Below are positions 16,278-63,059 of a DNA stretch of 64,000 nucleotides, in pieces (the stretch's first letter is position 1; each line of letters opens with the position of its first letter). The notes under the pieces were generated by a model. The model had not been told where the DNA came from. It saw only the letters and a list, made by a program, of their open reading frames with translations, and made no database searches. The DNA is from an uncultured candidatus Brocadiaceae bacterium. Lineage in GTDB: Bacteria; Planctomycetota; Brocadiia; SM23-32. Location: assembly GCA_964434535.1 (NCBI GenBank), contig CAYSWA010000007.1:8321-72320 (forward strand), in the 5' to 3' direction. A program made the translations under genes and the position numbers.

Positions 16278-16278
16278 G

Positions 16279-16896
16279 CTACGGGCTCCAGTCCAGGAAG
16301 TTCTCCAGCAGGCGCAGCCCGACCCGGCCGCTGCGCTCGGGGTGGAACTGCGTCGCGACGACGTTGCCCTGCGCCAGCGCGCTGACGAACGGACCGTGGT
16401 AATCGGTCGTGCCGAGGATGGACTCGGGATCGGCGGGGGAGGGGGCGAAGCTGTGCACGAAGTAGAAGCATGCGCCGTCGCCGACCCCCCTCCACAGGGG
16501 GTGGGGCAGGTGCTGCTCCACCTCGTTCCAGCCCATGTGCGGCACCTTGGCGCCCTCGGGCACGGCGAGCCGCTCCACGCCGCCGCGCACGAGGCCCAGG
16601 CACTCGGCCTCGTCCTCCTCGCTGCACTGCAGGATGATCTGCGCGCCGAGGCAGATGCCGAGCATCGGGCGGCCGGAGGCGGCGTAGTGGCGGACGGCCT
16701 CGTCCAGCCCCAGCGAGCGGAGCGTGGCCATGGCGGCCCCCGCGGCGCCGACGCCGGGGAAGATCAGCCGCCCGGCCGCCTGCACCTCGTCGGGGTTGCT
16801 GCTGACCACGGCCGCCCGGCCGAGCTTCTCGACGGCGAGCCGCACGCTGGTCAGGTTGCCCGCGTGGTAGTCCACGATGGTGATCACGTCCGGCAT
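16279..16896 (-). CDS. hisH: imidazole glycerol phosphate synthase glutamine amidotransferase subunit
   Basis: MPDVITIVDYHAGNLTSV...GICLGAQ...QFHPERS. Its stop abuts the hisF start. Confidence 0.85.
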   Translation of the reverse strand: MPDVITIVDYHAGNLTSVRLAVEKLGRAAVVSSNPDEVQAAGRLIFPGVGAAGAAMATLRSLGLDEAVRHYAASGRPMLGICLGAQIILQCSEEDEAECLGLVRGGVERLAVPEGAKVPHMGWNEVEQHLPHPLWRGVGDGACFYFVHSFAPSPADPESILGTTDYHGPFVSALAQGNVVATQFHPERSGRVGLRLLENFLDWSP

Positions 16897-17017
16897 GGCC
16901 CCCATGCTAACGCACCGGGGGCGGCGCTGCCATGGAAGGGCTTGGGGCGGCGCCGCTTTGATTCGGCGGCGCGCGTGCCGTAACCTGGGTTCCCTGTCCA
17001 TAGAGGAGGATGCACGC

Positions 17018-40993: not shown

Positions 40994-41186
40994 CGGGACG
41001 CCCCTCCCCAATCCGGGAGCCCGCCGGCCCGAGCGCCGAGCCGCCGCGCGCTCATTATACAGCGGTCCGGCGGCAACTCCATCAGTTTTCTGCCGAGCGC
41101 CGGTGGCCCGGACCGAAAAAGGGTGGTAGCATCATCGCATGGAGGTCACGTGCCAACACTGGCCCTTGCCCGGAAGGAGGAGGCAG

Positions 41187-41623: not shown

Positions 41624-43213
41624 TCAGCCCTCCAGGACCGCCTGCGCCTGGTCCAGGCCGGCCTCCATGACGTAGGGGATGCCGGAGATCTCGGCCGCCT
41701 GGCGGGTCAGGGCGATCAGGTCGGCGCGGCCGATCGTGGAGACGCTGAAGTTGCGGCTGCCGGCCATGATCTGCTGGAGGCCGATGCTGAGCTTCTGCAC
41801 GAAGGTGTAGACGCCGATCGCCCCGAGGGGCATCTGCTGGACCTCGTCGCCGTACTTGTCCTTCAGCTCATCGTAGCAGTAGAAGATCTCCTCCACTGTG
41901 TCGCCGTGTTCGCTGACCGTGTTGGGCAGGTTGCCCTCGCGCAGCCATAGGCCGATGTTCTTGCCGACGAAGCCGGGGATCATCAGCGCGCGGCCCATGC
42001 AGACGGCCTTGGTCCACGGGGCGCCCATGGCGAGCGCCTTGAAGATGTGGTCCTCCTGGGAGAGCCCGCCGGCGATGGCGATGTCGGGCGGCTCGATGCC
42101 GCGCTCGGCGAGCGCCCGGCAGAACTGGCAGACGAGCGACTGGAGGTAGAAGGTGGGCACGCCCCACTCGTTCATCATGCGCCAGGGGCTCATGCCCGTG
42201 CCGCCCGGGGCGCCGTCGATCGTCAGCAGCGAGATGCCCGCCTCCGCCGACCAGCGCAGCGCCATGGCCAGCTCACGCGCGCCGTAGGCCCCGGTCTTGA
42301 GGCTGACGCGCCTGGCGCCCAGATCGCGCAGGCGCTGCACCTCGGCCATGAAGCCTTCCTTGTCGACGAAGCCGAGCCGGCTGTGGCGCTCGAAGGCCGT
42401 GATCTCGCCGTCCTGGAAGGCCTCCTCCACGTGCGGCAGGCTCGGGTCGGGCGTGACCAGGTAGCCGCGGCTCTGGAGATGGCGGGCGCGCTCGATGGTG
42501 TCGACCTTGATCTCGCCGCCGATGCACTTGGCCCCCTGGCCCCACTTCAGTTCGATGGTCTCGACGCCGAGCTCGCGCACGCAGTAATCGGCCACGCCCA
42601 GGCGCGTATCCTCGACGTTGAGCTGGACGACCAGGTCGCCGTAGCCCTCGTGGAACCTGCGCCACTGGCTGACGCGGCGGTCCATCTCCGGGCTCTTGGC
42701 GACCTTCCCGTCGGCGTCCAGCTCGAGCTCGGGGTCGACGCCGCAGACGTTCTCGCCGCAGACCAGCGTGATGCCGGCCAGGGCGGCGCCGACGGCGAAG
42801 CTGTCCCAGTTCTTCGCGGCGACGTCGGTCGAGCCGAGGGCGCCGGTGAAGACGGGAACGCGCAACTTCACCTTGCTCTGCCTGCCGTACTCGACCTCGG
42901 TCGAGACGTTCGGGAAGATGCAATCGTCGGGGGTGGCCTGCAGGTCGCCCGTCAGCCCCTCGGCGCCGAGGGCGTAGCCCTGGATGTTCACGTGCGAGTA
43001 GTCGACCGGGTAGTCCTTCTCGGCGCCGGCCGTGATCTCGCCGAAGGGCGAGGGATAGAGCAGTTCGCGCCCGCGGAAGGACGCCTGAAAGATCTCACAG
43101 TTCCCGCGGCATCCGTCCACGCAGCGGGCGCAGATGCCGCTGCTGGGCGTGATGTCCCGGCTGCGGTTGCGGCACTGGAGCGCCTCCGAACCGTTCGGTC
43201 TCATCAACGTCAT
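41624..43213 (-). CDS. FMN-binding glutamate synthase family protein (stand-alone GltB-domain-2-like) with N-terminal Cys cluster
   Basis: GAPGGTGMSPW and IAIAGGL motifs of the GltS FMN domain. N-terminal CARCVDGCRGNC (C-x2-C-x3-C-x3-C). ATG 43213 with a GGAGG SD. Confidence 0.8.
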   Translation of the reverse strand: MTLMRPNGSEALQCRNRSRDITPSSGICARCVDGCRGNCEIFQASFRGRELLYPSPFGEITAGAEKDYPVDYSHVNIQGYALGAEGLTGDLQATPDDCIFPNVSTEVEYGRQSKVKLRVPVFTGALGSTDVAAKNWDSFAVGAALAGITLVCGENVCGVDPELELDADGKVAKSPEMDRRVSQWRRFHEGYGDLVVQLNVEDTRLGVADYCVRELGVETIELKWGQGAKCIGGEIKVDTIERARHLQSRGYLVTPDPSLPHVEEAFQDGEITAFERHSRLGFVDKEGFMAEVQRLRDLGARRVSLKTGAYGARELAMALRWSAEAGISLLTIDGAPGGTGMSPWRMMNEWGVPTFYLQSLVCQFCRALAERGIEPPDIAIAGGLSQEDHIFKALAMGAPWTKAVCMGRALMIPGFVGKNIGLWLREGNLPNTVSEHGDTVEEIFYCYDELKDKYGDEVQQMPLGAIGVYTFVQKLSIGLQQIMAGSRNFSVSTIGRADLIALTRQAAEISGIPYVMEAGLDQAQAVLEG

Positions 43214-43460
43214 GGCCTCTGCTGCCTCCTGTCCTGAGGAAAGCGAATGCGATCCGGCTCTTCGGATCTGTCCACGGAATGCACAACACGTTCGGCTTGA
43301 CACGCGCCGGGGGTACTTACGCAAGGCGGATACCGCTCGGCCGTTCGTGGGTCGAAAACGGGGCAGGAGGCCCCTCGGGGCCGTCATCGTCGGGGCGGAG
43401 GCGTCGGGGGCATGGGCAGGGGCTGAGCGGTGCGCAAGACGTGCACATGCCCCGGCCGGC

Positions 43461-45797
43461 TCAGCCGCCGAGGCCGTAGGAGGCGATGCGGGCCCGCAGC
43501 GTGTTGCGGCTGATCCCGAGCTCGCGGGCCGTGCGGGTCTGCACGCCGCCGTTGGCCGCCAGCACGTGGGCGATGAGCGTCCGCTCGACCAGGCCGATCA
43601 CCTCGTCGTAGAGCTCGCCGTCGCTGCCGCGTCGCAGCTCGGCGATCAGGGGCAGCAGCGCCTCCCTGAGGTCGCGGGCCGGTTCGGGGCGAGGGCGCCG
43701 CCGGGGCGCGCAGATCGACTCGGGCAGCAGCTCGACCGTGATCGTGGCGGTCCGGGTCAGCACGATGGCCCGCTCGATGCAGTTCTCCAGCTCGCGGACG
43801 TTGCCGGGCCAGTCGTAGGCCGTCAGCATGTCCAGGGCCTCGCGGGAGAGCTTGTCGACCTGCTTGTCGTCTTCGCGGCTGAAGACGCCCATGAAGTGCT
43901 CGACCAGCAGGGGGATGTCCTCTCGCCGCTCGCGCAGCGGGGGCAGGCGGATGGGCAGGACGTTGAGCCGGTAGTAGAGGTCCTGGCGGAACCCGCCGGC
44001 GTTGACCCGGTCGGCCAGGTCCACATTCGTGGCCGCCACCACGCGGACGTCGACCCGGACGGCCTGCGAAGCGCCGACGCGCTCGAATTCCTTCTCCTGG
44101 AGCACCCGCAGGAGCTTGACCTGGAGCTGCGGGCTCATGCTGCTGACCTCGTCCAGGAAGACGGTGCCCCCGTCGGCGAGGGCGAACCGGCCGGCGCGAT
44201 CGCGCGTGGCGCCGGTGAAGGCGCCCTCGACGTGGCCGAACAGCTCGGACTCCAGCAGCGAGTCGGGCAGGGCGCCGCAGTTGACGGCCACGAACGGGCC
44301 GTCGGCCCGGGGGCTGTTGGCGTGGATGACGCGGGCGATCAGCTCCTTGCCCGTGCCCGTCTCGCCCTGGATCAGCACGGTGGCGTTGCTGTCGGCGACG
44401 GCCTCGGTCAGGGCGAGCACCTCCTGCATGGGCTGCGAAGCGCCGATGATGCTGCCCTGGTCGTAACGCGACTCGGCGTGCGCCTTTGCGCCGGCGCCCC
44501 GCAGCAGCTCCTCTTTCTCGATGGCGACCATGCGGTTGATCTTGATCGCCTGCGAGATCATGGAGCCGACGATCTGCAGCAGGCGCTGGTCCTTCTCGAG
44601 CGTCTCGGCGTCGACGAACTCGCGGTCCGCGCTCAAGGCGCCGATCACCTGCTCCTCCAGGCGCAGCGGGATGCAGACGAAGGAGACGGGGGCGGCGCGC
44701 ATGTCCCGCCGGCGGGCGCCGGTGCGGTCCAGGAAGCGCGGGTCGCGCCGGATGTCGGGCACGGCCACCGCCGTCCCGCTCTCGACCACTGCGCCGGTGA
44801 CGCCCTCGCCGGGCTGGTAGACGCCCCGCGACATCTCCTCGCGGCTCAGCCCGTGGGCGGCGGCGATGCGCAGCGTGCCGCTGGCCCGGTCCTCCAGCAC
44901 CAGCGTGCCGCGTTTCATCTTCAGCCCGCGCGCCAGCACGGACATGATGGTTTCGAAGACGACGTCCAGGTCGAGGCTGCTGCCCAGGGCGCGGCTGATC
45001 TCCCTGAGCAGGCGCACCTCGAGCTCCTCGCGTCGCCGGGGCACCGGCTCGGGCCGGCCGTCGACCGACTCGAAGTAGTGCGGCGCCCCGATGCGGCAGG
45101 CGGGCCGGTCCTCCGCCTTGCGCACGATCAGCTCGATGCCGCCGCTGCCGACGCCGAGCTCCAGGACGACCTGGGTGACGTGCAGCAGCTTGGCCAGGAA
45201 GCTCGGAGAATGCGCGTGCTTCTCGGTGATCCAGTAGGCGACGGTCGACAGGTCGTAGAGCTTCGGGCAGAGGTGGCTGAAGAACTTCAGCACCTGCTCC
45301 TCGCCGCCCCACAGCTCCAGCATGGCGGTGGGGCTGTCGAAGACGTAGCGCCCGCGCGCGCCGGCGCGCTCGGCGAGCTCGCTCATGATCCCGCGCAGCC
45401 GGTCCGCGTCCGCCGGCTGCGGCACGCGGGTCACCGTCAGCCCGTCCGGGCCCGCCTCCCGGTAGAAGTCGGTGAAGAAGGCGTCGTCCTTGCCGAAGCC
45501 CGAGGTGAACGCATCGACCAGGTGGAAGCGCGGCAGCAACTCGTCGGTGACGTAGCGGTTGAGGATCGACTGGGGCGAGTGGCTGAAGCTGACGAAGAAG
45601 ATGCGGCTCTCGTCGCGGGCGGCCGTGGAAAGGAAGCTGCGGATGAAGAACTCCACCGGGGCGCCCGAATCGACCTGCCAGACCAGGTTGTCCCCGGCGC
45701 ACAGGCCGCTCAGTATGCGGTCCAGATACTCGACGCCGCTGCTGATGTGGTGAGCTTCCATCGGTGCTTGGTTCCCCTGAGTGGTTACGAAGTGCAC
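43461..45797 (-). CDS. sigma-54-dependent transcriptional activator, NifA-like (degenerate KaiC-like domain + GAF + AAA+ + Fis HTH)
   Basis: AAA+ block [15 protein letters not shown]...[15 protein letters not shown] (GAFTGA motif). GAF block ([12 protein letters not shown]). C-terminal HTH ([17 protein letters not shown]). The N-terminal roughly 250 aa resemble a KaiC/RecA-like fold lacking the P-loop. The start could be GTG 45797 or ATG 45763. Confidence 0.85.
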
Positions 45798-45966: not shown

Positions 45967-46035
45967 TGCGGGTGGAGTGGGCGAGTGACGGGGGGCCGGC
46001 CATTGAAGGCCTACTGCGGGAGGTGTGAGTCCACG

Positions 46036-47466
46036 GTGTCGCGCGCGCAGGGGTGCCTCGTCCCTTACGAGGGACCGCGCGAGGAGTGCGGGATCATCGG
46101 CCTCTACGGGGTCGAGCACGCCGCGCGGCAGGCGCACCTCGGCCTGTATGCGCTCCAGCACCGGGGGCAGGAGTCGGCGGGCATCGTCGCCTCCGACGGC
46201 GAGGGCATCCAGAGCGCGAAGGGCCTCGGCCTGCTGGCCGAAGCGATCGAGGCGTCGGCGCTGGCCGACCTGCCGGGGCACATCGCCATCGGCCACGTGC
46301 GCTACTCCACCACGGGCGCCAGGCGGGTGCAGAACATCCAGCCGCTGGTCATCGAGTACGCCGGCGGCATCGTGGCCGTGGCCCACAACGGGAACCTGAC
46401 CAACGCCCGCGCCCTGCGGCGGCGCTATGAGCAGAAGGGCTCGATCTTCCAGACCTCGACCGACAGCGAGGTCTTCGTCCACCTTCTCGCTGACCCCGAG
46501 CACCTCGGCGCCCCGGACCCGCTCAAGGAGGTGCTCCGGCACGTGCGCGGCGCCTACTCGCTGGTGCTTCTGACGGCCACCCAGCTCATCGCCGCCCGCG
46601 ACCCCCATGGGTTCCGCCCGCTCTGCCTGGGGCGGCTCGACGGCGGCTACGTCGTCGCCAGCGAGACCTGCGCGCTCGACCTGCTCGGGGCCCGCTTCGA
46701 GCGCGAGGTGCAGCCGGGCGAGGTCATCTTCGTCGACGAGGGCGGCCTGCGCGTCGAGACGTTCGCCGAGCCCCGGCGCGGCGCCCGGTGCGTCTTCGAA
46801 TACATCTACTTTGCCCGGCCGGACAGCGTCATCTTCGGCGAGACGGTCCACAACGTCCGCGTGCGCCTGGGGGAGAACCTGGCCAAGGGGGCGCCGGCGG
46901 ACGGGGACATCGTGGTCTCGGTGCCGGACTCGGGCAACTCGGCCGCGCTCGGCTACTCCCGCCGCTCGGGCATCCCGCTCGACATCGGCTTCGTGCGCAA
47001 CCACTACATCGGACGCACCTTCATCACCCCGGCCGAGGAGGCCCGCGCCAGCAGCGTGCGCATCAAGCTCAACGTCGTGCGCGACGTGGTGCGCGGCAAG
47101 CGCCTGGTGGTGGTGGACGACTCGATCGTGCGCGGCACCACATCCCGCGCGCGCATGGCGACGCTGCGGGAGGCCGGCGCCCGCGAGGTGCACCTGCGCG
47201 TCAGCGCGCCGCCGATCCGGCGCCCTTGCTTCTACGGCATCGACTTTCAGCACCCCGACGAGCTGATCGCCCGCGACCACAGCGTCGAGGAGATCGCCCG
47301 CTTCATCGGCGTCGACACCCTCGGCTACCAGAGCATCGAGGGGCTGATCGACGCCGTGCCGGGCGGCCCGGAGGACTACTGCTGCGCCTGCTTCACCGGC
47401 GAGTACCCGGTCGAGCTGACCGAGGCGATGGCCAAGGACGACCTGGAGCCCGGCCGCCGCCGCTGA
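46036..47466 (+). CDS. purF: amidophosphoribosyltransferase
   Basis: Catalytic CGIIGLYG N-terminal nucleophile after a short propeptide, PRTase motif VVVDDSIVRGTT, and C-terminal Cys cluster (CFYGID...CCACFTGEYP). The GTG start at 46036 is inferred and could lie elsewhere. Confidence 0.85.
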   Translation: MSRAQGCLVPYEGPREECGIIGLYGVEHAARQAHLGLYALQHRGQESAGIVASDGEGIQSAKGLGLLAEAIEASALADLPGHIAIGHVRYSTTGARRVQNIQPLVIEYAGGIVAVAHNGNLTNARALRRRYEQKGSIFQTSTDSEVFVHLLADPEHLGAPDPLKEVLRHVRGAYSLVLLTATQLIAARDPHGFRPLCLGRLDGGYVVASETCALDLLGARFEREVQPGEVIFVDEGGLRVETFAEPRRGARCVFEYIYFARPDSVIFGETVHNVRVRLGENLAKGAPADGDIVVSVPDSGNSAALGYSRRSGIPLDIGFVRNHYIGRTFITPAEEARASSVRIKLNVVRDVVRGKRLVVVDDSIVRGTTSRARMATLREAGAREVHLRVSAPPIRRPCFYGIDFQHPDELIARDHSVEEIARFIGVDTLGYQSIEGLIDAVPGGPEDYCCACFTGEYPVELTEAMAKDDLEPGRRR

Positions 47467-47580
47467 GCCCCGGCGCTCGGCAGACCCTGGGAAGTATCTG
47501 GCCTGGCGCCTGGACCCACGGAATGGTAGGATAGGCGCAGAACCTACGGCTCTGTATGTTGCATCGGCAGGAGCGCGGCC

Positions 47581-49134
<1,554 letters not shown>

Positions 49135-49224
49135 GATCGGACCGCCGAACCTACCACCATGTCGGCGCCGGGCCGGCCGGCTCGCCACCTCACCAGCGTA
49201 TCCCTGCCTGTCGTATCCTCCTGC

Positions 49225-49239
49225 TGGCAAACCGTTTGC
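49225..49239 (+). promoter_or_regulatory. sigma-54 (-24/-12) promoter TGGCAA-N5-TTGCG upstream of porin-amt-glnK
   Basis: CTGGCAAACCGTTTGCG has GG and GC separated by 10 nt. It lies about 110 nt upstream of the porin start. Confidence 0.5.
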
Positions 49240-49347
49240 GCAGGACATGGCGTCTCCGCCCCCGCGTTGGCACGCGGCTCGCCTATGCGGAGGTCGAAGC
49301 GGGGCCCCGTCGCGGGCCGCGCAGCCCTGGAGAGCGGGAGGTGAGAG

Positions 49348-50124
49348 ATGCGTGGAAAGCTGATTGCTGTTCTGGTCGCAACGTGCTGCGCCGTGGGGCC
49401 GGCCGCCCGGCGGGCCGACGGCGAGGAGAAGGACTGGTCGATCGAACTGGACGCCGCGCTGAACAGCAAGTACGTCTGGCGCGGCATCAACCTGGTCGAC
49501 GACTGGGTCTTTCAGCCCTCCGTCACCGGCGCCTACCGCGGCCTCTCGCTCAACGTCTGGGGCAACATGGAGCTGTCGAACGAGAACGTCTACCCCGGCC
49601 ACGGCGACGCGGCGGGCGACTTCACCGAGATCGACTACACCCTCGACTACTCGTGGGCCTGGCGGAGGCTGAACTTCTCGCTCGGCACCATCTACTACGA
49701 CTTCCCCAACACGGGCCTCGCCTCCACGCTGGAGCTCTACGGCGCCGTGGGGCTCGATGCGCCGCTGGCCCCGACGTTGACCGTCTACCAGGACGTCAAG
49801 GAGGCCGACGGCACCTACGCGGCCCTCTCGGTGAGCCATGCCTTCGAGGACGTATGGTCTCCTGCGGAGGGCGTGGCCGTCTCGCTCGACCTCGGCGCCT
49901 CGGTGGCGGCCGGCTCGTCCAACTTCAACAAGTTCTACTACGGGGTCGACGACGAGGGCCTGGCGGACCTGCTGCTCTCGGTGGGGCTGCCGGTGCGGCT
50001 CGGCGAGCGGTGGACGCTGAGGCCGTCCGCCAGCTTCTCGACGCTGCTGGACGACGATATTCGCTCATCGGTCAGTGACGCGAGCAACGCCTGGTACGGC
50101 GTCTCGCTGGGCTGTGCGTTCTGA
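49348..50124 (+). CDS. outer-membrane beta-barrel porin (amt-associated family)
   Basis: Signal peptide MRGKLIAVLVATCCAVGPAA. Alternating amphipathic beta-strands with aromatic girdle residues, ending in a C-terminal aromatic F. RBS GGGAGG. Immediately upstream of amt. Confidence 0.6.
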   Translation: MRGKLIAVLVATCCAVGPAARRADGEEKDWSIELDAALNSKYVWRGINLVDDWVFQPSVTGAYRGLSLNVWGNMELSNENVYPGHGDAAGDFTEIDYTLDYSWAWRRLNFSLGTIYYDFPNTGLASTLELYGAVGLDAPLAPTLTVYQDVKEADGTYAALSVSHAFEDVWSPAEGVAVSLDLGASVAAGSSNFNKFYYGVDDEGLADLLLSVGLPVRLGERWTLRPSASFSTLLDDDIRSSVSDASNAWYGVSLGCAF

Positions 50125-50151
50125 ATGCCTTCTACGGCAGGAGAGAAGAAG

Positions 50152-51501
50152 ATGAGGCGCACACTAAGGGGGTTGGGTCTGGTGGCACTGGCCCTCGGCA
50201 TCTGCGGCTCGCTGGCTTTTGCGCAGGAGACGGGGCCGCCGGAGGGCGACGTGGCCGAGTCGCTGGCGACGCTCCAGACGAACCTGAACGTGGTCTGGAC
50301 GGCCGTGGCGGCGTTCCTGGTCTTCTTCATGCAGGCCGGGTTCGCCATGGTGGAGACGGGGTTCACGCGGGCCAAGAACGCCTGCAACATCCTGATGAAG
50401 AACCTCATGGATTTCTCCATCGGGTCCATCATGTGGTTCCTGGTCGGTTTCGGGCTGATGTTCGGAGCCGGGGCGAGCGGCTGGGTGGGGATGAGCCACT
50501 TCGCCGCGACGGACTACAGCGCCAACGAGCTGAACTGGACGTTCTGGCTCTTCCAGTGCGTCTTCGCCGGCACGGCGGCCACCATCGTCTCGGGCGCGAT
50601 GGCCGGGCGCACGAAGTTCCACGGCTACCTGGCCTACAGCGCGGTGATCTGTGCGTTGATCTACCCGATCAGCGGCCACTGGGCCTGGGGCAGCCTGTTC
50701 GGTGTCGGGGAGGGCTGGCTGGAGGCGCGCGGTTTCGTGGACTTCGCCGGCTCGACCGTGGTCCACAGTTGCGGGGGCTGGCTCGCTCTGGCCGGGGCCG
50801 TTGTGCTCGGCCCGCGCACGGGCAAGTACGCCCCCGACGGCCGCTCCCGCGCCATCCCCGGCCACAACATCCCGCTGGCGGCGCTCGGGGTCTTCATCCT
50901 CTGGTTCGGCTGGTTCGGCTTCAACCCCGGCAGCACGACCGTGGGCGACCCGGCCCTGGGCTACGTGGCCATGACCACGAACCTGGCAGCCGCGGGCGGG
51001 GCCATCGGGGCCATGCTCGTCGCGTGGCTGCGGTTCCGCAAGCCCGACGTTTCGATGGCCCTCAACGGCGTGCTGGCCGGCCTGGTGGCCATCACTGCCG
51101 GCTGCGCCAACGTCAGCGTGCCCGGCGCCATGGTGATCGGCTTCCTGGCCGGCGTGCTCGTCGTGGTGTCCGTCGAGTTCATCGACAAGGTGCTCAAGGT
51201 CGACGATCCGGTCGGCGCGGTCAGCGTGCACGGCGTCTGCGGCGTCTTCGGCACCATCATGGCCGGGCTGCTGAACAGCCCGTCCGCCCCGGGCTACGCC
51301 GCGGGCGCGAGCGTCGGCACGCAACTGCTCGGCGTCGGCGTCATGTTCGCCTGGGCCTTTGGCACGGGCATGGCGCTGTTCACCCTGATCAAGCTCACCG
51401 TCGGCCTGCGCGCCTCACGCGACGAAGAGCTGCGCGGGCTGGACATCGGCGAGCACGGCATGGAGGCATATAGCGGCTTCCAGGTCTTCACCACCACCTG
51501 A
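50152..51501 (+). CDS. amt: ammonium transporter
   Basis: Amt/MEP signature regions ([39 protein letters not shown]), signal peptide, 11 TM helices. Confidence 0.9.
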
Positions 51502-51520
51502 GGGAAGGAGGGCTGCAGGC

Positions 51521-51862
51521 GTGAAACTGATCATCGCCTACATCCAGCCCGAGAAGCTCAGTGACGTCAAGCAGGAGCTCTACCGGGCCGAGGTCTTCAA
51601 GATGTCCGTCACCAACGCGCTCGGCTGCGGCCAGCAGAAGGGCTACACCGAGTCCTACCGCGGCGTTGAGATGGAGGTGAACCTGCTGAAGAAGGTCCGG
51701 CTGGAGATCGCGGTCAACGAGGACTTCGTCCGGCCGACGGTCGAGGCGATCATCGCGGGCGCGAAGACCGGCCAGATCGGCGACGGGAAGATCTTCGTGC
51801 TCGACCTGCACCAGTGCATCCGCATCCGCACCGGCGAGACGGGGAGCGGGGCCATCGGCTGA
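51521..51862 (+). CDS. glnK: nitrogen regulatory protein P-II (GlnK, amt-linked)
   Basis: [13 protein letters not shown]...T-loop YRGVEMEV...RIRTGETG. 19 nt downstream of amt. Confidence 0.9.
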
Positions 51863-51935
51863 ACGTCCGCCCGGAAAGAGGACGAAAGGAGGGTGCGCCC
51901 GTGAGACGATGGCCCAGAGCGGGCGGGGCGCGCCG

Positions 51936-51986
51936 AACCTACGTGAATGTGGGGAGGGGCACCTCGAACCTACGCGATAGTAGGTT
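51936..51986. promoter_or_regulatory. AACCTAC half-site (51936-51942) plus inverted repeat AACCTAC-GCGATA-GTAGGTT (51967-51986); candidate regulator binding sites upstream of glnA
   Basis: Perfect 7-bp arms with a 6-bp spacer. Related sites occur at 47526-47560 and 49131-49154. Confidence 0.4.
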
Positions 51987-52065
51987 GTTCACGGAAACGG
52001 TAAGCGGGCCTGAGATTGCGTAAGGCGTTGCAGATAAGTGATGCTTCGTGTCACTTGATTCTGGG

Positions 52066-52160
52066 AGTGTGGCATGGCCCTCCGGCCCAGAGGGGCCTCC
52101 GGCCCGGCGGGAAGCCCGTGCCACCGAACCGCGGCCCATAATCTCAAGTGTCAGGGACCA
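52066..52160 (-). repeat. structured dispersed repeat, copy B (inverted relative to copy A)
   Basis: Its reverse complement matches the 10351-10401 core at 50 of 51 nt and shares the terminal GGCCATGCCACACT. The centre differs, carrying a GGGCCGGAG direct repeat. Confidence 0.7.
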
Positions 52161-52186
52161 GTAGCTTACGGAAGGCCGAGGAGCAT

Positions 52187-52201
52187 TGGCACGGCCGTTG
52201 C
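52187..52201 (+). promoter_or_regulatory. sigma-54 promoter TGGCACG-GCCG-TTGCT for glnA
   Basis: Near-perfect match to TGGCACG-N4-TTGCW. The GG and GC are 10 nt apart. About 78 nt upstream of the glnA ATG. Confidence 0.65.
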
Positions 52202-52278
52202 TTAGGAGTTGGGCAACTGAATGGCGGGCGCCGCATCCGCCTGGGCGCCGCGGCAACCCGAAGGAGGGAGGACGGCAG

Positions 52279-53610
52279 ATGGAGATGAAAAACAGGGACT
52301 TCGTTCTGAAGGCCGTCAGCGACCACAAGGTGAAGTTCATCCGCCTCTGGTTCACCGACGTGCTCGGCTTCCTGAAGAGCTTCGCGATCACGGCCGAGGA
52401 GCTGGAGGAGGCGCTCGACGAGGGGATGGGCTTCGACGGGTCGTCGATCGAGGGCTTCGCGCGCATCCAGGAGAGCGACATGATCGCCCGGCCCGATCCG
52501 AGCACGTTCGCCATCCTGCCATGGCGTCCGACCGAGGACGGGGCGGTGGCGCGCATGTTCTGCGACGTGCTCCAGCCGGACGGCACGCCGTATGAGGGCG
52601 ATCCCCGGTGGGCCCTGAAGCGCAACCTGGAGAAGGCGGCGCAGATGGGCTACCGATTCTACGTCGGCCCGGAGCTGGAGTTCTTCTACTTCAAGGACGC
52701 CTCGACGGTGGCCACGCTCGATGCCGGCGGCTACTTCGACCTGACCCCGCTGGATGTGGCGAGCGACCTGCGGCGCGACTCGGTGCTCGCCCTGGAAAAG
52801 CTCGGCATCCACGTCGAGTACAGCCACCACGAGGTCGCACCGAGCCAGCACGAGATCGACCTGCGCTTCATGGACGCCCTCTCCATGGCCGATGCCGCGA
52901 TGACCTACCGGCTCACCGTCAAGGAGGTCGCCCTCCAGCACGGCGTCTACGCCACCTTCATGCCCAAGCCGATCGCCGGGGAGAACGGCAGCGGCATGCA
53001 CACGCACCAGTCGCTCTTCGCCGGGGAGGAGAACGCGTTCTTCAGCGCCGACGACGAGTTCCACCTCTCGAACGTGGGCAAGTCCTACATTGCCGGGCTG
53101 CTGACCCACGCGCGGGAGATCTGCTCGCTGGTCGCCCAGTGGGTCAACTCCTACAAGCGGCTGGTGCCGGGCTACGAGGCGCCGGTCTACGTCTCGTGGG
53201 CGCGCCGCAATCGCTCGGCGCTGGTGCGGGTGCCGATGTACAAGCCCGAGAAGGCGAAGGCGACCCGCGCCGAGTTCCGCTGCCCCGACCCGGCCTGCAA
53301 CCCCTACCTGGCCTTCGCCGTGATGCTGGCCGCCGGCCTGAAGGGCGTCGAGGAGGGCTACGAGCTGGCGGACCCGGTCGAAGAGGACATCTTCGAGATG
53401 ACCGAGGCCGAGCGGGAGGCGCGCGGCATCCTCTCCCTGCCGGGCAACCTGGCCGAGGCCATCGCCGAGACCGAACGGAGCGAACTGGTCCGCACAGCGC
53501 TCGGGGACCACATCTTCGAGAAGTTCATCGCCAACAAGAAGATCGAGTGGGACGGCTACAGGATGCACGTCAGCCGCTTCGAACTGGACAAGTACCTCCC
53601 TATCCTCTGA
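52279..53610 (+). CDS. glnA: glutamine synthetase, type I
   Basis: ATG 52279 with AAGGAGGGAGG upstream. GS beta-grasp and catalytic motifs (KFIRLWFTD, GSSIEGF, MPKPIAGENGSGMHTHQS, adenylylation-region NPY). Confidence 0.9.
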   Translation: MEMKNRDFVLKAVSDHKVKFIRLWFTDVLGFLKSFAITAEELEEALDEGMGFDGSSIEGFARIQESDMIARPDPSTFAILPWRPTEDGAVARMFCDVLQPDGTPYEGDPRWALKRNLEKAAQMGYRFYVGPELEFFYFKDASTVATLDAGGYFDLTPLDVASDLRRDSVLALEKLGIHVEYSHHEVAPSQHEIDLRFMDALSMADAAMTYRLTVKEVALQHGVYATFMPKPIAGENGSGMHTHQSLFAGEENAFFSADDEFHLSNVGKSYIAGLLTHAREICSLVAQWVNSYKRLVPGYEAPVYVSWARRNRSALVRVPMYKPEKAKATRAEFRCPDPACNPYLAFAVMLAAGLKGVEEGYELADPVEEDIFEMTEAEREARGILSLPGNLAEAIAETERSELVRTALGDHIFEKFIANKKIEWDGYRMHVSRFELDKYLPIL

Positions 53611-56600: not shown

Positions 56601-58322
56601 ACCGAGTACCTGGTCAACGCCCGCGAGCTCCAGATCAAGATGGCCCAGGGGGCCAAGCCGGGCGAGGGCGGGCAACTGCCCGGCCACAAGGTCAGCAGGG
56701 ACATCGCCCGCGTGCGGCACACAACGGCCGGCGTGACGCTGATCTCGCCGCCGCCGCACCACGACATCTACTCCATCGAAGACCTGGCGCAGCTCATCTA
56801 CGACCTGAAGGCCGTCAACCGCGAGGCCCGCGTCTCGGTGAAGCTCGTCAGCGAGGTCGGCGTCGGCACCATCGCCGCCGGCGTGGCGAAGGGCAAGGCC
56901 GACATGGTGCTGATCGCCGGCCACGACGGCGGCACCGGCGCCAGCCCGCTGACCGCCATCCAGCACACCGGCCTGCCATGGGAGCTCGGCCTGGCCGAGA
57001 CGCAGCAGACGCTGGTGACCAACCGCCTGCGCGAGCGCATCCGCGTGCAGGTGGACGGCCAGCTCAAGACCGGGCGCGACCTGGCGGTGGCGGCGCTGCT
57101 CGGCGCCGAGGAGTTCGGCTTCGGCACAACCGTGCTGGTCACGCTCGGCTGCGTGATGATGCGCAAGTGCCACATGAACACCTGCCCGGTCGGCGTCGCC
57201 ACTCAGGACCCCGTGCTGCGGGCGCGCTTCGCCGGGAAGCCCGAGTACGTCGAGCGCTTCTTCCGCTTCATGGCGCAGGAGCTGCGCGAATGGATGGGCA
57301 AGCTCGGGTTTCGCACGCTCGACGATATGGTTGGCCGCGTCGAGATGCTCGACGTCGAGCCGGCCGTCGAGCACTACAAGGCCAGGGGGCTGGAGCTGGG
57401 CGCGCTGCTGGAGGCGCCGCAGGCGCCGGAAGGCACGTCCCTGCGCTGCACCGGCGGGCAGCAACCCACCGAGCTGGCCGAGCCCGAGCGTGAGCTGCTC
57501 CGAGTGGCGCGCCCGGCGTTGGAGGAGGGCCGCCCGGTGCGCGTCGAGCTGCCGATCCGCAACGTGCACCGCACCGTCTGTGCCACGCTGAGCGGCGAGG
57601 TGGCCCGGCGCTACGGGGCCGAAGGGCTGCCCGAGGGCACGGTCCGGGTCTGGCTGCAGGGTTCGGCCGGGCAGAGCCTGGCGGCGTTCCTGGCGCGGGG
57701 CGTGGAGGTGCGCCTGGAGGGCGAGGCGAACGACTACACGGCCAAGGGCATGTCCGGCGGGCGGCTGGTGGTGGTGCCGCCGCCGGACGCCGCCTTCCTG
57801 CCGCACGAGAACATCATCGTGGGCAACGTCGTGCTCTACGGGGCCACGGGGGGCGAGGCGTTCATCTGCGGCGTGGCGGGGGAGCGGTTCGCCGTGCGCA
57901 ACAGCGGCGCGACGGCCGTCGTCGAGGGCGTCGGCGACCACGCCTGCGAGTACATGACCGGCGGCGTGGTGGTCGTGCTCGGCTCGACCGGCTACAACTT
58001 CGCCGCCGGCATGAGCGGCGGCGTCGCCTACGTCTACGACGAGTCCGAGGCGTTCGGCACCCGCTGCAACCTGGACATGGTGGACCTGGAGAGCGTGCGC
58101 GGCGAGGAGGACCGCCGCCGGCTCCGGGCCCTCGTCGAGAAGCACCGGCGCCTGACCGGCAGCGCGCGGGCCGCCATGCTGCTGGAGAACTGGCAGGGTC
58201 AGCTTCCGCTCTTCGTCAAGGTGATGCCGCTCGAGTACCGCGAGGTCCTCCAGCGCATGCGCCTGGAGGAGCACCGCGACAGCGAGACCGTCTCGGCCAC
58301 CGAGGAGGTCTACCATGGGTAA
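53697..58322 (+). CDS. gltB: glutamate synthase large subunit
   Basis: N-terminal amidotransferase nucleophile in ...LYDPRFEHDACGVGF, FMN domain, 3Fe-4S Cys cluster, and C-terminal GXGXG beta-helix. 1541 aa. The start is ATG 53697 (GAGGA SD) or 53766. Confidence 0.9.
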   Translation: MGGEREQTDDPRQDGDPDQRRGAMDRAGRPRGGGLYDPRFEHDACGVGFLARLDGEAHHHVVADAVEVLANLGHRGAVGGDQATGDGAGLLVQMPDAFMRRVAGECSVDLPGPGQYAAGMVFLPDEPAAAERCMSALERASQAEGCLLLGWRKVPTSGEHLGELARSTRPDIRQVFVAPGRVPPGGFERKLYVLRRRVENEVAGWRDEATAQFYVASLSSRTVLYKGMLSGTQLVRFYPELDERDFACAFVVVHQRYSTNTFPTWQLAQPFRMLAHNGEINTLRGNVSHMRAREAELASELFGDDIEKVKPVIVEGGSDSAMLDNALELLTMAGRSLPHAAMMLVPEAWGGKFHMSEDRRAFYEYHAAIMEPWDGPAALVFTDGRYIGATLDRNGLRPCRFTVTGDGYVVLASETGVLDIPPSRIIRHGRLQPGKMLLVDMEENRIVSDNEIKARMGRQRPYRRWVRDNRIELRGLFAPSEIPPEDPEELLRKQHAFGYTREELSMVIGPMASQGQEAVGSMGNDAALAVFCDRPQLLFAYFKQLFAQVTNPPIDPLREQLVMSLMSFVGRERNLLDETPEHCRRLKIPHPVLTPEDTVRLRGADHPDLVTRDVDILFEAGGDGKALKVGLERVFAKAEKAIADGASILILTDRHMDEDHAPIPALLAVAGLHHHLIRRGLRTRAGIVVESGEPREVMHFALLVGYGANAVCPYVAFATVRQLAEEGLLARETSPARAADAYITAVKKGLLKTFSRMGISTIRSYFGAQIFEAVGLSRGLVDEYFCGTASRVEGIGLEEIAGEAARRHRAGFPAGRAPAALLEAGGAYHVRVGGESHLWTPEALHTLQQATRTDDYGLFRRYTALIDAQSERRVTLRSLFRFRETEPVPLEEVESVESIMRRFCSAAMSFGSISKEAHETIATAMNRLGAKSNSGEGGEDRERYRPLPNGDSRCSAIKQVASGRFGVTTEYLVNARELQIKMAQGAKPGEGGQLPGHKVSRDIARVRHTTAGVTLISPPPHHDIYSIEDLAQLIYDLKAVNREARVSVKLVSEVGVGTIAAGVAKGKADMVLIAGHDGGTGASPLTAIQHTGLPWELGLAETQQTLVTNRLRERIRVQVDGQLKTGRDLAVAALLGAEEFGFGTTVLVTLGCVMMRKCHMNTCPVGVATQDPVLRARFAGKPEYVERFFRFMAQELREWMGKLGFRTLDDMVGRVEMLDVEPAVEHYKARGLELGALLEAPQAPEGTSLRCTGGQQPTELAEPERELLRVARPALEEGRPVRVELPIRNVHRTVCATLSGEVARRYGAEGLPEGTVRVWLQGSAGQSLAAFLARGVEVRLEGEANDYTAKGMSGGRLVVVPPPDAAFLPHENIIVGNVVLYGATGGEAFICGVAGERFAVRNSGATAVVEGVGDHACEYMTGGVVVVLGSTGYNFAAGMSGGVAYVYDESEAFGTRCNLDMVDLESVRGEEDRRRLRALVEKHRRLTGSARAAMLLENWQGQLPLFVKVMPLEYREVLQRMRLEEHRDSETVSATEEVYHG

Positions 58323-59748
58323 GCCGACCGGTTTCCTGGAATACGGGCGCGTCGAGCCGCCGCAGCGGGAGGTGGAGGAGCGGGTGCGCGACTTCGCGGA
58401 GGTCGAGGAGCTGCTCAGCCCCGAGGAGCTCCGCCGCCAGGCGGCCCGCTGCATGGACTGCGGCATCCCGTTCTGCCACGCCTTCGGCTGCCCGCTGGCG
58501 AACGTGATCCCCGAGTGGAACGAGATGGCCTACCGGGGCAAGTGGCGCCGGGCGCTGGAGCTGCTCCACGCGACCAACAACTTCCCCGAGGTGACCGGGC
58601 GCATCTGCCCGGCCCCGTGCGAGCCGGCCTGCACGCTCGCCATCAATCAGGACGCGGTGACGATCCGGCACATCGAGCTTCAGATCGCCGAGCGCGGCTG
58701 GCGCGAGGGATGGATCGAGCCGCAGCCGCCCGCGCGCAGCTCCGACCGCAGCGTCGCCGTGATCGGCTCGGGGCCGGCGGCGCTCGCCGCCGCCCAGCAG
58801 CTCGCGCGCGCGGGTCACGAGACGACCGCCTTCGAGAAGTCCGACCGCGCCGGCGGCATCCTGCGCTACGGCATCCCCGACTTCAAGCTGGACAAGGCGG
58901 TCCTCGACCGCCGCCTGGAGCAGATGGGCCGCGAGGGCGTCTCGTTCGAGCTCGGCGTCGAGGTGGGGCGCGACGTCTCCGCCCGCTACCTGCTGCGCCA
59001 TTTCGACGCCGTGCTCGTCTGCACCGGCGCCGGCGCGCCCCGCGACCTCGACGCGCCGGGGCGCGACCTGGACGGCATCCACTTCGCCATGGACTTCCTT
59101 ACCGGGCAGAACCGCCGCAACATGGGCGAGGTCATTGCGCCCGACGAGCGGATCAGCGCCGAGGGCAAGCGCGTCGTCGTCATCGGCGGCGGCGACACCG
59201 GGGCCGACTGCGTCGGCACCAGCCGGCGGCAGGGCGCGCGCGAGATCGTGCAGGTCGAGCTGCTGCCCGAGCCGCCGAGGGAGCGGCCGGCGGACAACCC
59301 CTGGCCCACCTGGCCGCAGGTGCTGCGCTCCAGCACCTCGCACCAGGAGGGCTGCCGGCGCCTCTGGAGCGTGCTGACCAGGGAGGCGCTCGGGCGGGAG
59401 GGGTGCGTGCGGGCGCTGCGGTGCGTGAGGCTCGACTGGTCGGCGCCCGACGAGGGCGGGCGGCGTTCGTTCCGCGAGGTGCCGGGCGCGCAGTTCGATC
59501 TGCCCGCCGAGCTGGTGATCCTGGCGATGGGTTTCGTGCACACCGAACACGGTGGGTTGGTGGAGGAGCTCGACCTGGAGACCGACGCGCGCGGCAACCT
59601 GGCCACCGACGAGCGCGGGATGACGAGCGCGACCGGCGTCTTCGCGGCCGGCGACTCGGCCGTCGGCGCCTCGCTGGTCGTGCGGGCGATCGCGGCCGGC
59701 CGCCGCGTCGCGGCGTCGGTGGGCGATTACCTGGACCGGCTCGCTTGA
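58315..59748 (+). CDS. gltD: glutamate synthase small subunit (NADPH)
   Basis: Fe-S Cys cluster CMDCGIPFCH...CPAPCEPAC. FAD/NAD Rossmann motifs VAVIGSGPAALAAA and VVVIGGGDTGADC. Overlaps the gltB stop. Confidence 0.9.
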   Translation: MGKPTGFLEYGRVEPPQREVEERVRDFAEVEELLSPEELRRQAARCMDCGIPFCHAFGCPLANVIPEWNEMAYRGKWRRALELLHATNNFPEVTGRICPAPCEPACTLAINQDAVTIRHIELQIAERGWREGWIEPQPPARSSDRSVAVIGSGPAALAAAQQLARAGHETTAFEKSDRAGGILRYGIPDFKLDKAVLDRRLEQMGREGVSFELGVEVGRDVSARYLLRHFDAVLVCTGAGAPRDLDAPGRDLDGIHFAMDFLTGQNRRNMGEVIAPDERISAEGKRVVVIGGGDTGADCVGTSRRQGAREIVQVELLPEPPRERPADNPWPTWPQVLRSSTSHQEGCRRLWSVLTREALGREGCVRALRCVRLDWSAPDEGGRRSFREVPGAQFDLPAELVILAMGFVHTEHGGLVEELDLETDARGNLATDERGMTSATGVFAAGDSAVGASLVVRAIAAGRRVAASVGDYLDRLA

Positions 59749-59917: not shown

Positions 59918-61015
59918 ATGAAGGGCCTGATCGCACTGGAAGACGGGCGGACCTTCGCGGGCGAGTCCTTCGGCGCCGAGGGCAAGCGAGCCGGGGAGGC
60001 CGTCTTCAACACCAGCATGACCGGCTACCAGGAGGCCCTTACCGACCCGTCCTACCGGGGGCAGATCGTCACGATGACCTATCCCCTGATCGGCAACTAC
60101 GGCACGAACCGGCGGGACGTGGAGTCCGAGCGCCCCCAGGTCGAGGGATTCGTAGTCCGCCAGTACTGCCCCTACCCGTCGAACCACGAGGCCGAGTGGA
60201 CGCTCGCCGAGTACCTGGTCCGCCACGGGGTGGTCGCCCTGAGCGAGGTGGACACGCGGGCCTTCACCCGGCACATCCGCCGCGCGGGGGCGATGCGCGC
60301 CGTGATCGCCTCCGGCGATCATGACCCCGACGCGCTGGTGGAGGAGGCCCGCAGCAGCCCCGGCCTGATCGGGCGCGACCTGGTACGCGAGGTGACCTGC
60401 GATGCGCCCTACGTCTTCGCCGAGGGCGAGCCGGGGGCGCTGCACGTGGTGGTCTACGACTTCGGCGTGAAGCGGAACATCCTGCGCTGCCTGGCCGGCA
60501 TGGGCTTCCGCGTCACCGTCGTGCCGGCCGGCACGAGCGCCGAGGAGGCGCTCTCCCAAGGGCCGGACGGGGTACTGCTCTCCAACGGACCGGGCGACCC
60601 CGAGGGCGTGCCCTACGCCGTCGAGGCGACCCGCGGCCTGATCGGCCGGGTGCCGCTGTTCGGTATCTGCCTGGGGCACGAGTTCCTCGGGCTCGCCCTC
60701 GGCGGCGAGATGCGCAAGCTGAAGTTCGGACACCGCGGCGCCAACCACCCCGTCAAGGACCTGCGCACCGGCGAGATCGACATCACCTGCCAGAACCACA
60801 GCTTCAACATCGAGATGGACTCGCTCGACCCCGGCGAGGTCGAGATCACGCACGTGAACCTGAACGACATGACCGCCGCCGGGCTGCGCCACCGCCGGCT
60901 GCCCGTCGCCTCGGTGCAGTACCACCCCGAGGCAAGCGCCGGCCCCCACGACGCCCGCCACCTCTTCGACCGCTTCCGCGAGATGATGCTCGCCGAGCGG
61001 GGGGGAGAGGAATGA
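59918..61015 (+). CDS. carA: carbamoyl-phosphate synthase small (glutaminase) subunit
   Basis: MKGLIALEDGRTFAGESFGAEG...TGYQEALTDPSY. GATase GICLGHEF...QYHPEAS. Confidence 0.9.
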   Translation: MKGLIALEDGRTFAGESFGAEGKRAGEAVFNTSMTGYQEALTDPSYRGQIVTMTYPLIGNYGTNRRDVESERPQVEGFVVRQYCPYPSNHEAEWTLAEYLVRHGVVALSEVDTRAFTRHIRRAGAMRAVIASGDHDPDALVEEARSSPGLIGRDLVREVTCDAPYVFAEGEPGALHVVVYDFGVKRNILRCLAGMGFRVTVVPAGTSAEEALSQGPDGVLLSNGPGDPEGVPYAVEATRGLIGRVPLFGICLGHEFLGLALGGEMRKLKFGHRGANHPVKDLRTGEIDITCQNHSFNIEMDSLDPGEVEITHVNLNDMTAAGLRHRRLPVASVQYHPEASAGPHDARHLFDRFREMMLAERGGEE

Positions 61016-61502: not shown

Positions 61503-63059
61503 GTGGGGATGAGCCCGACCGAACATGAAGCCGTGGTGGTGCTCGACTTCGGGTCGCAGTACAACCAGCTCATCGCGCGGCGCGTGCGCCAGGCGGGGGT
61601 CTACTGCGAGATCGTGCCGCCCGAGACGAGCGCCGACGAGCTCGCCGCACGGAACCTGAAGGCGCTGATCCTCTCCGGCGGGCCGGCCTCGGCGACCGAT
61701 CCCGGCGCGCCCCGGCTCGATGAGGCGGCGCTGGAGCTCGGCGTGCCGGTCCTCGGCATCTGCTACGGGATGCAGCTCTTAGGGGCGATGCTCGGCGGGG
61801 AAGTGCTGAAGGCCGATTCGCGCGAGTACGGCCCGGCGCGCATCGAGATCGACGAGCCGGACGAGCTGTTCGCCGACCTGCCCGAGGCGCTGGACGTCTG
61901 GATGAGCCACGGCGACCAGGTCAGCCGCATGCCGGACGGTTTCGTGCGCCTCGCCCACACGTCGACCTGCCCGGTGGCCGCCATGGGCGACGCCGACCGC
62001 GGCATCTACGCCGTCCAGTTCCACCCCGAGGTGGTGCACACCCCACGCGGGCCGGACATCTTCCGCAACTTCCTCTACGGGATCGCCGGCTGCGCGGGCG
62101 ACTGGACCATGGCGAGCCTCGTGGAGGAAGCCGTGCGCCGCATCCGCCGGCAGGTCGGCTCCGAGCGGGTCATCTGCGCGCTTTCGGGCGGCGTGGACTC
62201 CACCGTGGTGGCGGCGCTGCTGAATGAAGCCGTCGGCGAGCAGGCCGTCTGCGTCTTCGTCGACAACGGGCTGCTGCGCGCGGGCGAGGCGGAGGAGATC
62301 CGCCGGTTCTTCCGGGACGAATACCCGGTCAACTTCCGGTTCGTCGCCGCCGCCGGCCGGTTCCTCCACGCCTTGGAGGGCGTGGTCGACCCGGAACAGA
62401 AGCGGAAGGTGATCGGGCAAGTCTTCATCGACGTCTTCCGGGAGGAGGCCGAGGAGATCGGCGAGGCCCGCTTCCTGGCCCAGGGGACGCTGTATCCGGA
62501 CGTGATCGAGAGCCGCTCCGCGCACGGCGGCCCGTCCGCCACCATCAAGAGCCACCACAACGTGGGGGGGCTGCCGGACGACCTGGAGTTCGAGCTGATC
62601 GAGCCGCTGCGCGAGCTGTTCAAGGACGAGGTCCGGGCGCTCGGTCGCGATCTCGGGCTGCCCGAGTCCGTCCTCACCCGCCAGCCCTTCCCCGGGCCGG
62701 GGCTGGCCGTGCGCATCGTCGGCGAGGTCACGCCGCAGCGCCTGCGCGTTCTGCGCCAGGCCGACCGGCGCGTCCAGGAGGAGGTCGAGCGCTGGGAGGG
62801 CTACGGCGCGGTCTGGCAGTCCTTCGCCGTGCTGCTGCCGGTGCGCAGCGTCGGCGTGATGGGCGACGAGCGGACGTATGCGAACGTGGTCGCGCTGCGC
62901 ATTGTCAGCAGCGTGGACGCAATGACGTCCGACTGGGTCCGGCTACCGCACGAGATCCTGGCCCGCATCTCCGGGCGCATCATCAACGAGGTGGAGGGCG
63001 TCAACCGCGTCGTCTACGACATCAGCCCCAAGCCGCCGAGCACGATCGAGTGGGAGTGA
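61503..63059 (+). CDS. guaA: GMP synthase (glutamine-hydrolysing)
   Basis: GATase ICYGMQ...QFHPEV. ATP-PPase SGGVDSTV. C-terminal dimerisation domain ending IEWE. Confidence 0.9.
   Translation: MGMSPTEHEAVVVLDFGSQYNQLIARRVRQAGVYCEIVPPETSADELAARNLKALILSGGPASATDPGAPRLDEAALELGVPVLGICYGMQLLGAMLGGEVLKADSREYGPARIEIDEPDELFADLPEALDVWMSHGDQVSRMPDGFVRLAHTSTCPVAAMGDADRGIYAVQFHPEVVHTPRGPDIFRNFLYGIAGCAGDWTMASLVEEAVRRIRRQVGSERVICALSGGVDSTVVAALLNEAVGEQAVCVFVDNGLLRAGEAEEIRRFFRDEYPVNFRFVAAAGRFLHALEGVVDPEQKRKVIGQVFIDVFREEAEEIGEARFLAQGTLYPDVIESRSAHGGPSATIKSHHNVGGLPDDLEFELIEPLRELFKDEVRALGRDLGLPESVLTRQPFPGPGLAVRIVGEVTPQRLRVLRQADRRVQEEVERWEGYGAVWQSFAVLLPVRSVGVMGDERTYANVVALRIVSSVDAMTSDWVRLPHEILARISGRIINEVEGVNRVVYDISPKPPSTIEWE

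Follow-up and report, generated by a model that had tools for sequence, protein, structure and literature searches.

Paired CCTAC-N6-GTAGG dyads upstream of amt-glnB and glnA as probable enhancer sites of an adjacent NifA-family sigma-54 activator

Copies of a short word, AACCTAC, lie close to nitrogen assimilation genes in the 64-kb stretch of DNA analyzed here (referred to as the window; 71% G+C). This raises the question of what these repeats are and which protein might recognize them. The genes concerned are all on the plus strand. purF (45985-47466) is followed by a gene for a NifA-family enhancer-binding protein (47581..49134), which we refer to as the activator. Next is a putative target operon (49348..51862), which consists of a porin-like gene (49348-50124), an ammonium transporter gene (amt; 50125-51501), and a gene for a PII protein (glnB; 51521-51862). 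It is followed by a second putative target, glnA, which encodes a type I glutamine synthetase (52279..53610; TIGR00653, 524 bits). Further downstream are gltB (about 53.7-58.3 kb), gltD (58315-59748), carA (59918-61015), and guaA (61503-63059). The named proteins most closely related to GuaA come from Brocadiaceae, Brocadiia, and Planctomycetes, which indirectly suggests Planctomycetota as the source.

AACCTAC is present upstream of glnA at 51936-51942 and 51967-51973 (plus strand), and its complement, GTAGGTT, is at 51980-51986. An earlier note on this DNA had described a perfect 7/7 palindrome here, and both of its arms were located, in AACCTACGCGATAGTAGGTT (51967-51986), separated by a 6-nt spacer. 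The copies that it had reported at 47.5 kb and 49.1 kb were also found, at 47541 and 49148. AACCTAC occurs five times in the 64-kb window, compared with 0.71 expected, and this count was not attained in any of 100 dinucleotide-preserving shuffles. The full AACCTAC-N6-GTAGGTT pattern, with up to three mismatches allowed, is present at five sites in the window (0.25 expected). The shorter CCTAC-N6-GTAGG pattern, with up to one mismatch, is present at six (0.72 expected, with six in none of 100 shuffles).

These six dyads start at 47515, 47543, 49120, 49150, 51938, and 51969. They form three pairs, with centre-to-centre distances of 28, 30, and 31 bp. One pair is before the activator gene, one extends across its stop codon and precedes porin-amt-glnB, and one is between glnB and glnA. 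The centres of the two arms of a dyad are 11 bp apart, or one helical turn, and the two dyads of a pair are three turns apart. The earlier note had described some of the words as half-sites. The words are real, but those that appear to be isolated upstream half-sites are the better-conserved left arms of complete, degenerate 16-bp dyads. The dyad at 49120 was not among its coordinates, and the pairing of the sites and a candidate binder were not in that note either. The exact core TAC-N6-GTA is in three of the six dyads (at 47545, 49122, and 51971), and each of the other three has one arm changed. A single copy of TAC-N6-GTA lies outside the three regulatory regions of the window, at 20877 within a transglutaminase-like gene, and we have taken it as a chance match.

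In the glnA pair, the distal dyad, CCTACGTGAATGTGGG (51938..51953), has one mismatch to CCTAC-N6-GTAGG. The proximal dyad, CCTACGCGATAGTAGG (51969..51984), is perfect, and its symmetry extends to AACCTAC-N6-GTAGGTT at 51967-51986. Both are carried by a 31-bp tandem direct repeat on the plus strand (51921..51982), the copies of which (51921-51951 and 51952-51982) are 74% identical. The glnA sigma-54 (-24/-12) promoter, TGGCACggccgTTGCT (52187..52202, plus strand), matches the consensus at 11/11 positions and is the best sigma-54 promoter of the entire window. It lies 201 nt after the palindrome, in good agreement with the approximately 200 nt to a near-consensus promoter given in the earlier note. 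Measured from the inferred start, the two dyads are centred near -268 and -236.

The amt operon pair has a similar arrangement. The distal dyad, CGTACCTCCACGTAGG (49120..49135), overlaps the last codons of the activator gene and its TAG stop (49132-49134), and the proximal dyad is CCTACCACCATGTCGG (49150..49165). A sigma-54-type promoter for porin-amt-glnB, TGGCAAaccgtTTGCG (49225..49240, plus strand), matches at 9/11 consensus positions, with dyads centred near -124 and -94. Of all the elements of the system, this promoter and the 49150 dyad are the weakest. A second, weaker sigma-54-like element, TGGCACgcggcTCGCC, is at 49268-49283, which is 43 nt downstream of the 49225 element and before the porin-like gene. 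The third pair, upstream of the activator gene, consists of CCCACGGAATGGTAGG (47515..47530) and CCTACGGCTCTGTATG (47543..47558), the second of which ends 22 nt before the start codon. The reading of the repeats as UAS elements working with a sigma-54 promoter is supported for the amt operon and glnA regions but not for the activator gene pair, which has no sigma-54 promoter, a point that the earlier note had not made.

The glnA dyads are unusually distant from their promoter, at approximately -236/-268 compared with -100 to -166 in the closest relatives. This is because the window has about 140 bp of extra GC-rich DNA. The segment (52000-52180) is between the glnA dyads and the promoter, and L081, the closest relative, does not have it. 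A 17-bp sequence is repeated in tandem within it (52076-52092 and 52093-52109), and there are also imperfect inverted repeats (52042-52058/52144-52160 and 52069-52087/52106-52124). The segment may represent inserted DNA, a bending or IHF-like region, or the site of a second regulator. We also considered a repeat element within it, but the word GGCCTCCGGCCC occurs 8 times in the window compared with 3.7 expected, which is not significant.

Some other features of the window were recorded. Genes for glutamine-dependent amidotransferases are unusually concentrated between 13678 and 63059: pyrG (13678-15288), hisF and a hisH-like gene (15498-17001), purF, gltB/gltD, carA, and guaA. No dyad was found upstream of any of these genes. 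A minus-strand gene at 7891-9051 encodes a baeRF (bacterial archaeo-eukaryotic release-factor-like) protein (PF18849, family 7, 166 bits; PF18845, family 3, 147 bits). Known nitrogen consensus sequences (NifA TGT-N10-ACA, NtrC, NtcA, TnrA/GlnR, NrpR, and AmtR) were considered and rejected, with none in the three regions that contain the dyads.

In place of the genome-wide enrichment search suggested in the earlier note, we used conservation across genomes, which tests the same point and arguably does so more strongly, and the sites passed. The related loci came from species-representative genomes and metagenome contigs. Orthologous activators are encoded in eight other genomes with the same layout, from Planctomycetota, Desulfomonile, and Spirochaetota. 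Their activators are 80% identical to that of the window in a 69% G+C contig (L081), 73-74% in two Planctomycetota MAGs (L082 and L084), 72% in Desulfomonile tiedjei (L083), and 52-65% in Spirochaetaceae/Treponema MAGs (L001-L003 and L013). The order activator, (porin), amt, PII, glnA is kept in these loci. All eight have CCTAC-N6-GTAGG-like dyads just before the activator start codon, and they have a dyad pair just after the activator stop codon and/or before glnA or a second amt gene. The spacing is 30-31 bp in 13/13 two-dyad regions of the amt/glnA type from the nine genomes. Each of these 13 regions then has a sigma-54 promoter downstream, with matches at 9-11/11 positions, and the dyad centres are at -94 to -268. 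The sites in these counts were chosen for their resemblance to the consensus, which makes conservation look somewhat stronger than it is. In L084, an additional amt region has just one dyad. In alignments of the intergenic DNA, the dyads and promoters are the only conserved blocks.

We also used a weight matrix trained on 36 sites from the eight other genomes only, with the window sites left out. Its consensus is ATCCTACAwwwwTGTAGGAT, with TAC and GTA 87-97% conserved in the 36 training sites, a figure that is somewhat inflated by having picked the sites by their similarity to the consensus. The matrix ranks the six window sites 1 to 6 of the 64 kb, and five of the six exceed the highest score found in any of 20 shuffled windows. 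The scores are 16.7 for the dyad at 47515 (the best in the window), 16.3 for the proximal glnA dyad, and 15.5 for the distal glnA dyad (fourth in the window). The proximal amt dyad at 49150 is the weakest of the six, and its score of 8.1 is within the range of the shuffle maxima. All six high-scoring sites of the 64 kb are confined to the three nitrogen gene intergenic regions. Together with the conserved layout, this supports the suggestion in the earlier note that UAS-type sites are common to three nitrogen gene upstream regions.

The same kind of collection was used to ask how the two arms deviate from each other. Among symmetric positions in 43 sites (n = 215), which were also picked by consensus similarity so that conservation appears somewhat higher than it is, 45 deviations were one-sided and 4 were compensatory. 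The predominance of one-sided deviations indicates that the constraint is on the bases themselves, at the DNA level, and not on RNA pairing.

Which protein might bind these dyads? They flank the activator gene in 9/9 genomes. The window activator (517 aa) has matches to the Sigma54_activat, AAA_lid_14, and HTH_8 domains, and its AAA+ domain contains a GAFTGA motif. Its N-terminal domain is GAF, with no REC domain and no cysteines in the GAF region. The protein scores 563.2 bits on the NCBIfam NifA model TIGR01817, above the cutoff of 528.85, and its recognition helix is of the ...TER.MGLR... type. We analyzed 84 loci encoding sigma-54 activators for exact TAC-N6-GTA within 400 bp upstream or 500 bp downstream. 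The core was beside activators with an ...[ST]ER.MGLR... helix at 9/9 loci (not counting the window), compared with 6/75 loci encoding other helices (Fisher p = 1.4e-8). These other helices were NtrC/ZraR-like or those of true NifA (TPRQI[AG]Y), and none of the true NifA type had TAC-N6-GTA.

From this co-localization and co-occurrence, and by analogy with known activators, we infer that the dyads are bound by the NifA-family sigma-54 activator whose gene is at 47581-49134. We consider it likely that they constitute a tandem enhancer (UAS) at porin-amt-glnB and at glnA and autoregulatory sites on the activator's own gene. At the amt operon and glnA, a -24/-12 promoter is downstream, within the approximately 80-300 bp expected of such an enhancer. 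The sites there are paired, dyad symmetric, and phased, the protein has the AAA+/GAFTGA and C-terminal HTH organization of an activator, and the elements are conserved amid diverging DNA.

If the activator works in this way, two HTH dimers, placed about three turns (30-31 bp) apart, would dock on the same face of the DNA and serve as the nucleus for the AAA+ ring. DNA looping would carry the ring (hexamer) to the closed complex of sigma-54 holoenzyme at the -24/-12 promoter. There, the GAFTGA loop would touch sigma-54, and ATP hydrolysis would open the promoter. The N-terminal GAF domain would presumably gate activity by nitrogen status (2-oxoglutarate and/or PII), a signal that we presume purely by analogy with NifA lacking NifL. 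Scarce nitrogen would then induce ammonium uptake, PII, and glutamine synthetase.

The dyads upstream of the activator gene itself call for a different explanation. They lie 20-60 nt before the start codon in the relatives and end 22 nt before the ATG in the window. No sigma-54 promoter with at least 8/11 matching positions was found within 400 bp upstream of the activator gene in any of the nine genomes. Therefore, these dyads are probably autoregulatory rather than activating. Autoregulation is their most likely role, and it would probably take the form of repression by promoter occlusion.

The distal amt dyad also coincides with coding sequence. In the window, it overlaps the last four codons and the stop codon of the activator gene, reading CGT ACC nnn nnG TAG (R-T-x-x-stop). 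A dyad also overlaps the activator stop codon (TAG or TAA) at position 6671 of L081, 8549 of L082, 8549 of L083, 9549 of L084, and 11543 of L013. In Planctomycetota, Desulfomonile, and Treponema L013, and so across three phyla, the bases that encode the conserved ...FRT-x-x C terminus of the activator also form part of the distal amt dyad.

We considered whether the dyads might instead be operators for an unlinked nitrogen regulator, such as a global repressor of the NrpR, AmtR, GlnR/TnrA, or NtcA kind. The sites of the activator gene are consistent with this because a location approximately 20-60 nt from a start codon, with no sigma-54 promoter, is typical for a repressor. However, GGAA-N6-TTCC, CTAT-N6-ATAG, TGTNA-N7-TNACA, and GTA-N8-TAC are all absent from the three regions. 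The amt and glnA pairs, 30-31 bp apart and 94-268 bp upstream of sigma-54 promoters, have the geometry of enhancers rather than operators. Furthermore, in different phyla the dyads accompany a single HTH type of linked activator, and their core is the same as the experimentally defined site of a paralogous activator. An unlinked regulator is therefore an unlikely explanation, although we give it some weight.

Another candidate binder is encoded in the window, on the minus strand at 43461-45797. This second sigma-54 activator (778 aa, GAF-AAA+-HTH) is 1.7 kb upstream of the first dyad pair. Its gene adjoins a glutamate-synthase-like gene and a histidine kinase gene, and so it may also serve nitrogen metabolism. 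Even so, its recognition helix is of the NtrC/ZraR type, unlike that of the adjacent activator, and enhancer-binding protein homologues with its helix type have no TAC-N6-GTA dyads alongside. Its gene also has no counterpart among the genes called in the four Planctomycetota/Desulfomonile loci where the dyads are retained. We consider it very unlikely that this protein binds the dyads. It has an N-terminal region of approximately 270 aa with no assigned domain, followed by GAF, AAA+, and the NtrC-type HTH. The neighboring minus-strand genes, at 41624-43387 and 39053-41011, encode a glutamate-synthase-domain protein and a dCache/HAMP histidine kinase. The sole sigma-70-like promoter in the 45.7-53.7 kb region (45895-45867, minus strand) serves the second activator, and simple scans found no sigma-70 promoters or terminators at the dyads.

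Finally, it is scarcely credible that the inverted repeats are RNA hairpins (terminators or attenuators after glnB and the activator gene) or are chance or repeat element sequence: the palindromes do fold (z = -2.9 for 51930-51992 and -2.7 for 49113-49172), as any palindrome trivially would, but they have no T-tract, a terminator scan was blank at all dyads, no Rfam family matched (a scan of 45.7-54 kb found only a sub-threshold snoRNA match inside purF), the arm deviations are one-sided and not compensatory, the 47.5-kb pair folds no better than shuffles (z = -0.4), and chance is excluded by the window counts against shuffles, the weight matrix ranking, and conservation across phyla.

The adjacent activator remains the probable binder. 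A small protein from the related loci was considered as a competitor for its sites. In L082 (14686-15102) and L084 (14038-14454), a 138-aa protein whose sole domain is a Fis-type HTH_8 is encoded between a second glnA copy and NAD synthetase. We rejected it because its helix is Fis/NtrC-like (GINRNTLRSKI) and not TER.MGLR, and it is absent from the window.

The name given to this type of activator is also in question. NCBI and JGI name its relatives NifA, whereas the conserved neighbors and targets are amt, glnB, and glnA. TGT-N10-ACA is not found anywhere in the 64-kb window. Annotation of parts of the window revealed no nif or nitrogenase genes, and no nif genes were seen in the related loci either. 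Because this "NifA" lacks TGT-N10-ACA sites and targets assimilation genes, "nif-specific" is probably a misnomer for its clade. The clade is large, with more than 7,000 homologues of the activator at E<1e-100, and the label "nif-specific transcriptional activator NifA" is probably a misannotation throughout it.

We lean slightly toward a broader interpretation. The "NifA" clade with the ...TER.MGLR... helix may be a master activator of ammonium assimilation that replaces NtrBC in Planctomycetota, Spirochaetota, and some Desulfobacterota and is not nif specific. Its enhancer would be of fixed form, with two CCTAC-N6-GTAGG dyads. The distal one would, in many lineages, lie within the last codons and stop codon of the activator gene, so that the activator C terminus and the enhancer of the next operon would be mutually constrained. 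Outside Proteobacteria, including in Planctomycetota and Spirochaetota, a 2025 survey of sigma-54 regulons reported that NtrBC is limited and that there is little or no nitrogen regulon under sigma-54 (PMC12316311). We found no description of CCTAC-N6-GTAGG, or of such a regulon, in the literature on Planctomycetota or Spirochaetota. A literature search with the exact motif strings returned only a paper on AnfA (PMC7294313), and nothing was found on control of glnA or amt by a NifA-like UAS. An activator, a tandem enhancer, and a sigma-54 promoter make up a textbook mechanism. The dyads provide a testable cis element and a candidate nitrogen regulator for the little-studied Planctomycetota and Spirochaetota. 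Combining the weight matrix with the rule that dyads pair at 30-31 bp could allow nitrogen regulons to be predicted in metagenome-assembled genomes.

The system can be compared with several that are already known. Canonical NifA is in the same protein family (the window activator is above the TIGR01817 cutoff) and shares the logic of a UAS with a sigma-54 promoter. However, the UAS of NifA is TGT-N10-ACA at nif promoters, which the window does not have, and the targets here are assimilation genes. The enterobacterial glnAp2 enhancer, which is bound by NtrC, has two dyads approximately three turns apart upstream of the glnA sigma-54 promoter. NtrC also controls amtB-glnK in addition to glnA, and further NtrC sites repress its own or neighboring promoters. 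As a response regulator, NtrC has a REC domain and is phosphorylated, and it recognizes TGCACC-N5-GGTGCA. The enhancer proposed here is functionally equivalent to that of NtrC in its layout and target genes, but the sensor domain is GAF with no REC, and TGCACC-N5-GGTGCA is absent from the three regions.

EbpA of Leptospira provides a precedent for a GAF-containing sigma-54 activator of amtB in a spirochaete. As summarized in PMC12655853, the work of Hu et al. (2017) indicates that EbpA binds upstream of amtB and is needed at low ammonium. EbpA differs from the window activator in being FhlA-like, with two GAF domains.

Another parallel is DVU1949 of Desulfovibrionales, a one-component NifA-like regulator. 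Its predicted targets, under sigma-54 promoters, are amt-glnB, glnA (types I and III), and gltB (Kazakov et al. 2015, PMC4641369). It is also predicted to autoregulate and, by computational prediction only, to recognize a 16-bp dyad of approximately TTTACAwwwwTGTAAA (PMC4641369). The 16-bp dyad is in the same register (xxTACA-N4-TGTAxx), and the regulon architecture is the same. The outer bases differ, being TTTACA...TGTAAA for DVU1949 and CCTAC...GTAGG here, and the best-conserved positions are CA/TG there and TAC/GTA here. The recognition helix of DVU1949 is LTPRQMGYRI, compared with the TER.MGLR type of the window activator. A protein with a helix similar to that of DVU1949 (L016) is 47% identical to the window activator. 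The differences in the outer dyad bases and the recognition helix indicate that the window activator belongs to a sister clade of DVU1949 and is not the same regulator.

The last comparison is with the paralogue AnfA. The isolated DNA-binding domain of Rhodobacter capsulatus AnfA binds two tandem dyads with the consensus TAC-N6-GTA (PMC7294313). These dyads are located in the interval from anfA to the RpoN site of anfH. Full activation requires the two of them, and when both are mutated, binding and expression are lost (PMC7294313). The site of Azotobacter vinelandii VnfA is GTAC-N6-GTAC (PMC7294313). The core TAC-N6-GTA is identical in the window, where the predicted binder is also a NifA-family GAF-AAA+-HTH protein. 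In both cases, direct repeats carry two tandem sites, which are found just after the activator gene and ahead of a -24/-12 promoter. However, the targets here are amt, glnB, and glnA rather than Fe-nitrogenase genes, and so this is not an element of the anf regulon. AnfA and VnfA have conserved N-terminal cysteine motifs, whereas the GAF region of the window activator is without cysteine. The consensus of the window sites reaches outward to CCTAC/GTAGG, and extra dyads are present in the promoter region of the window activator's own gene. The host is also different, being probably a planctomycete here and a proteobacterium in the case of AnfA.
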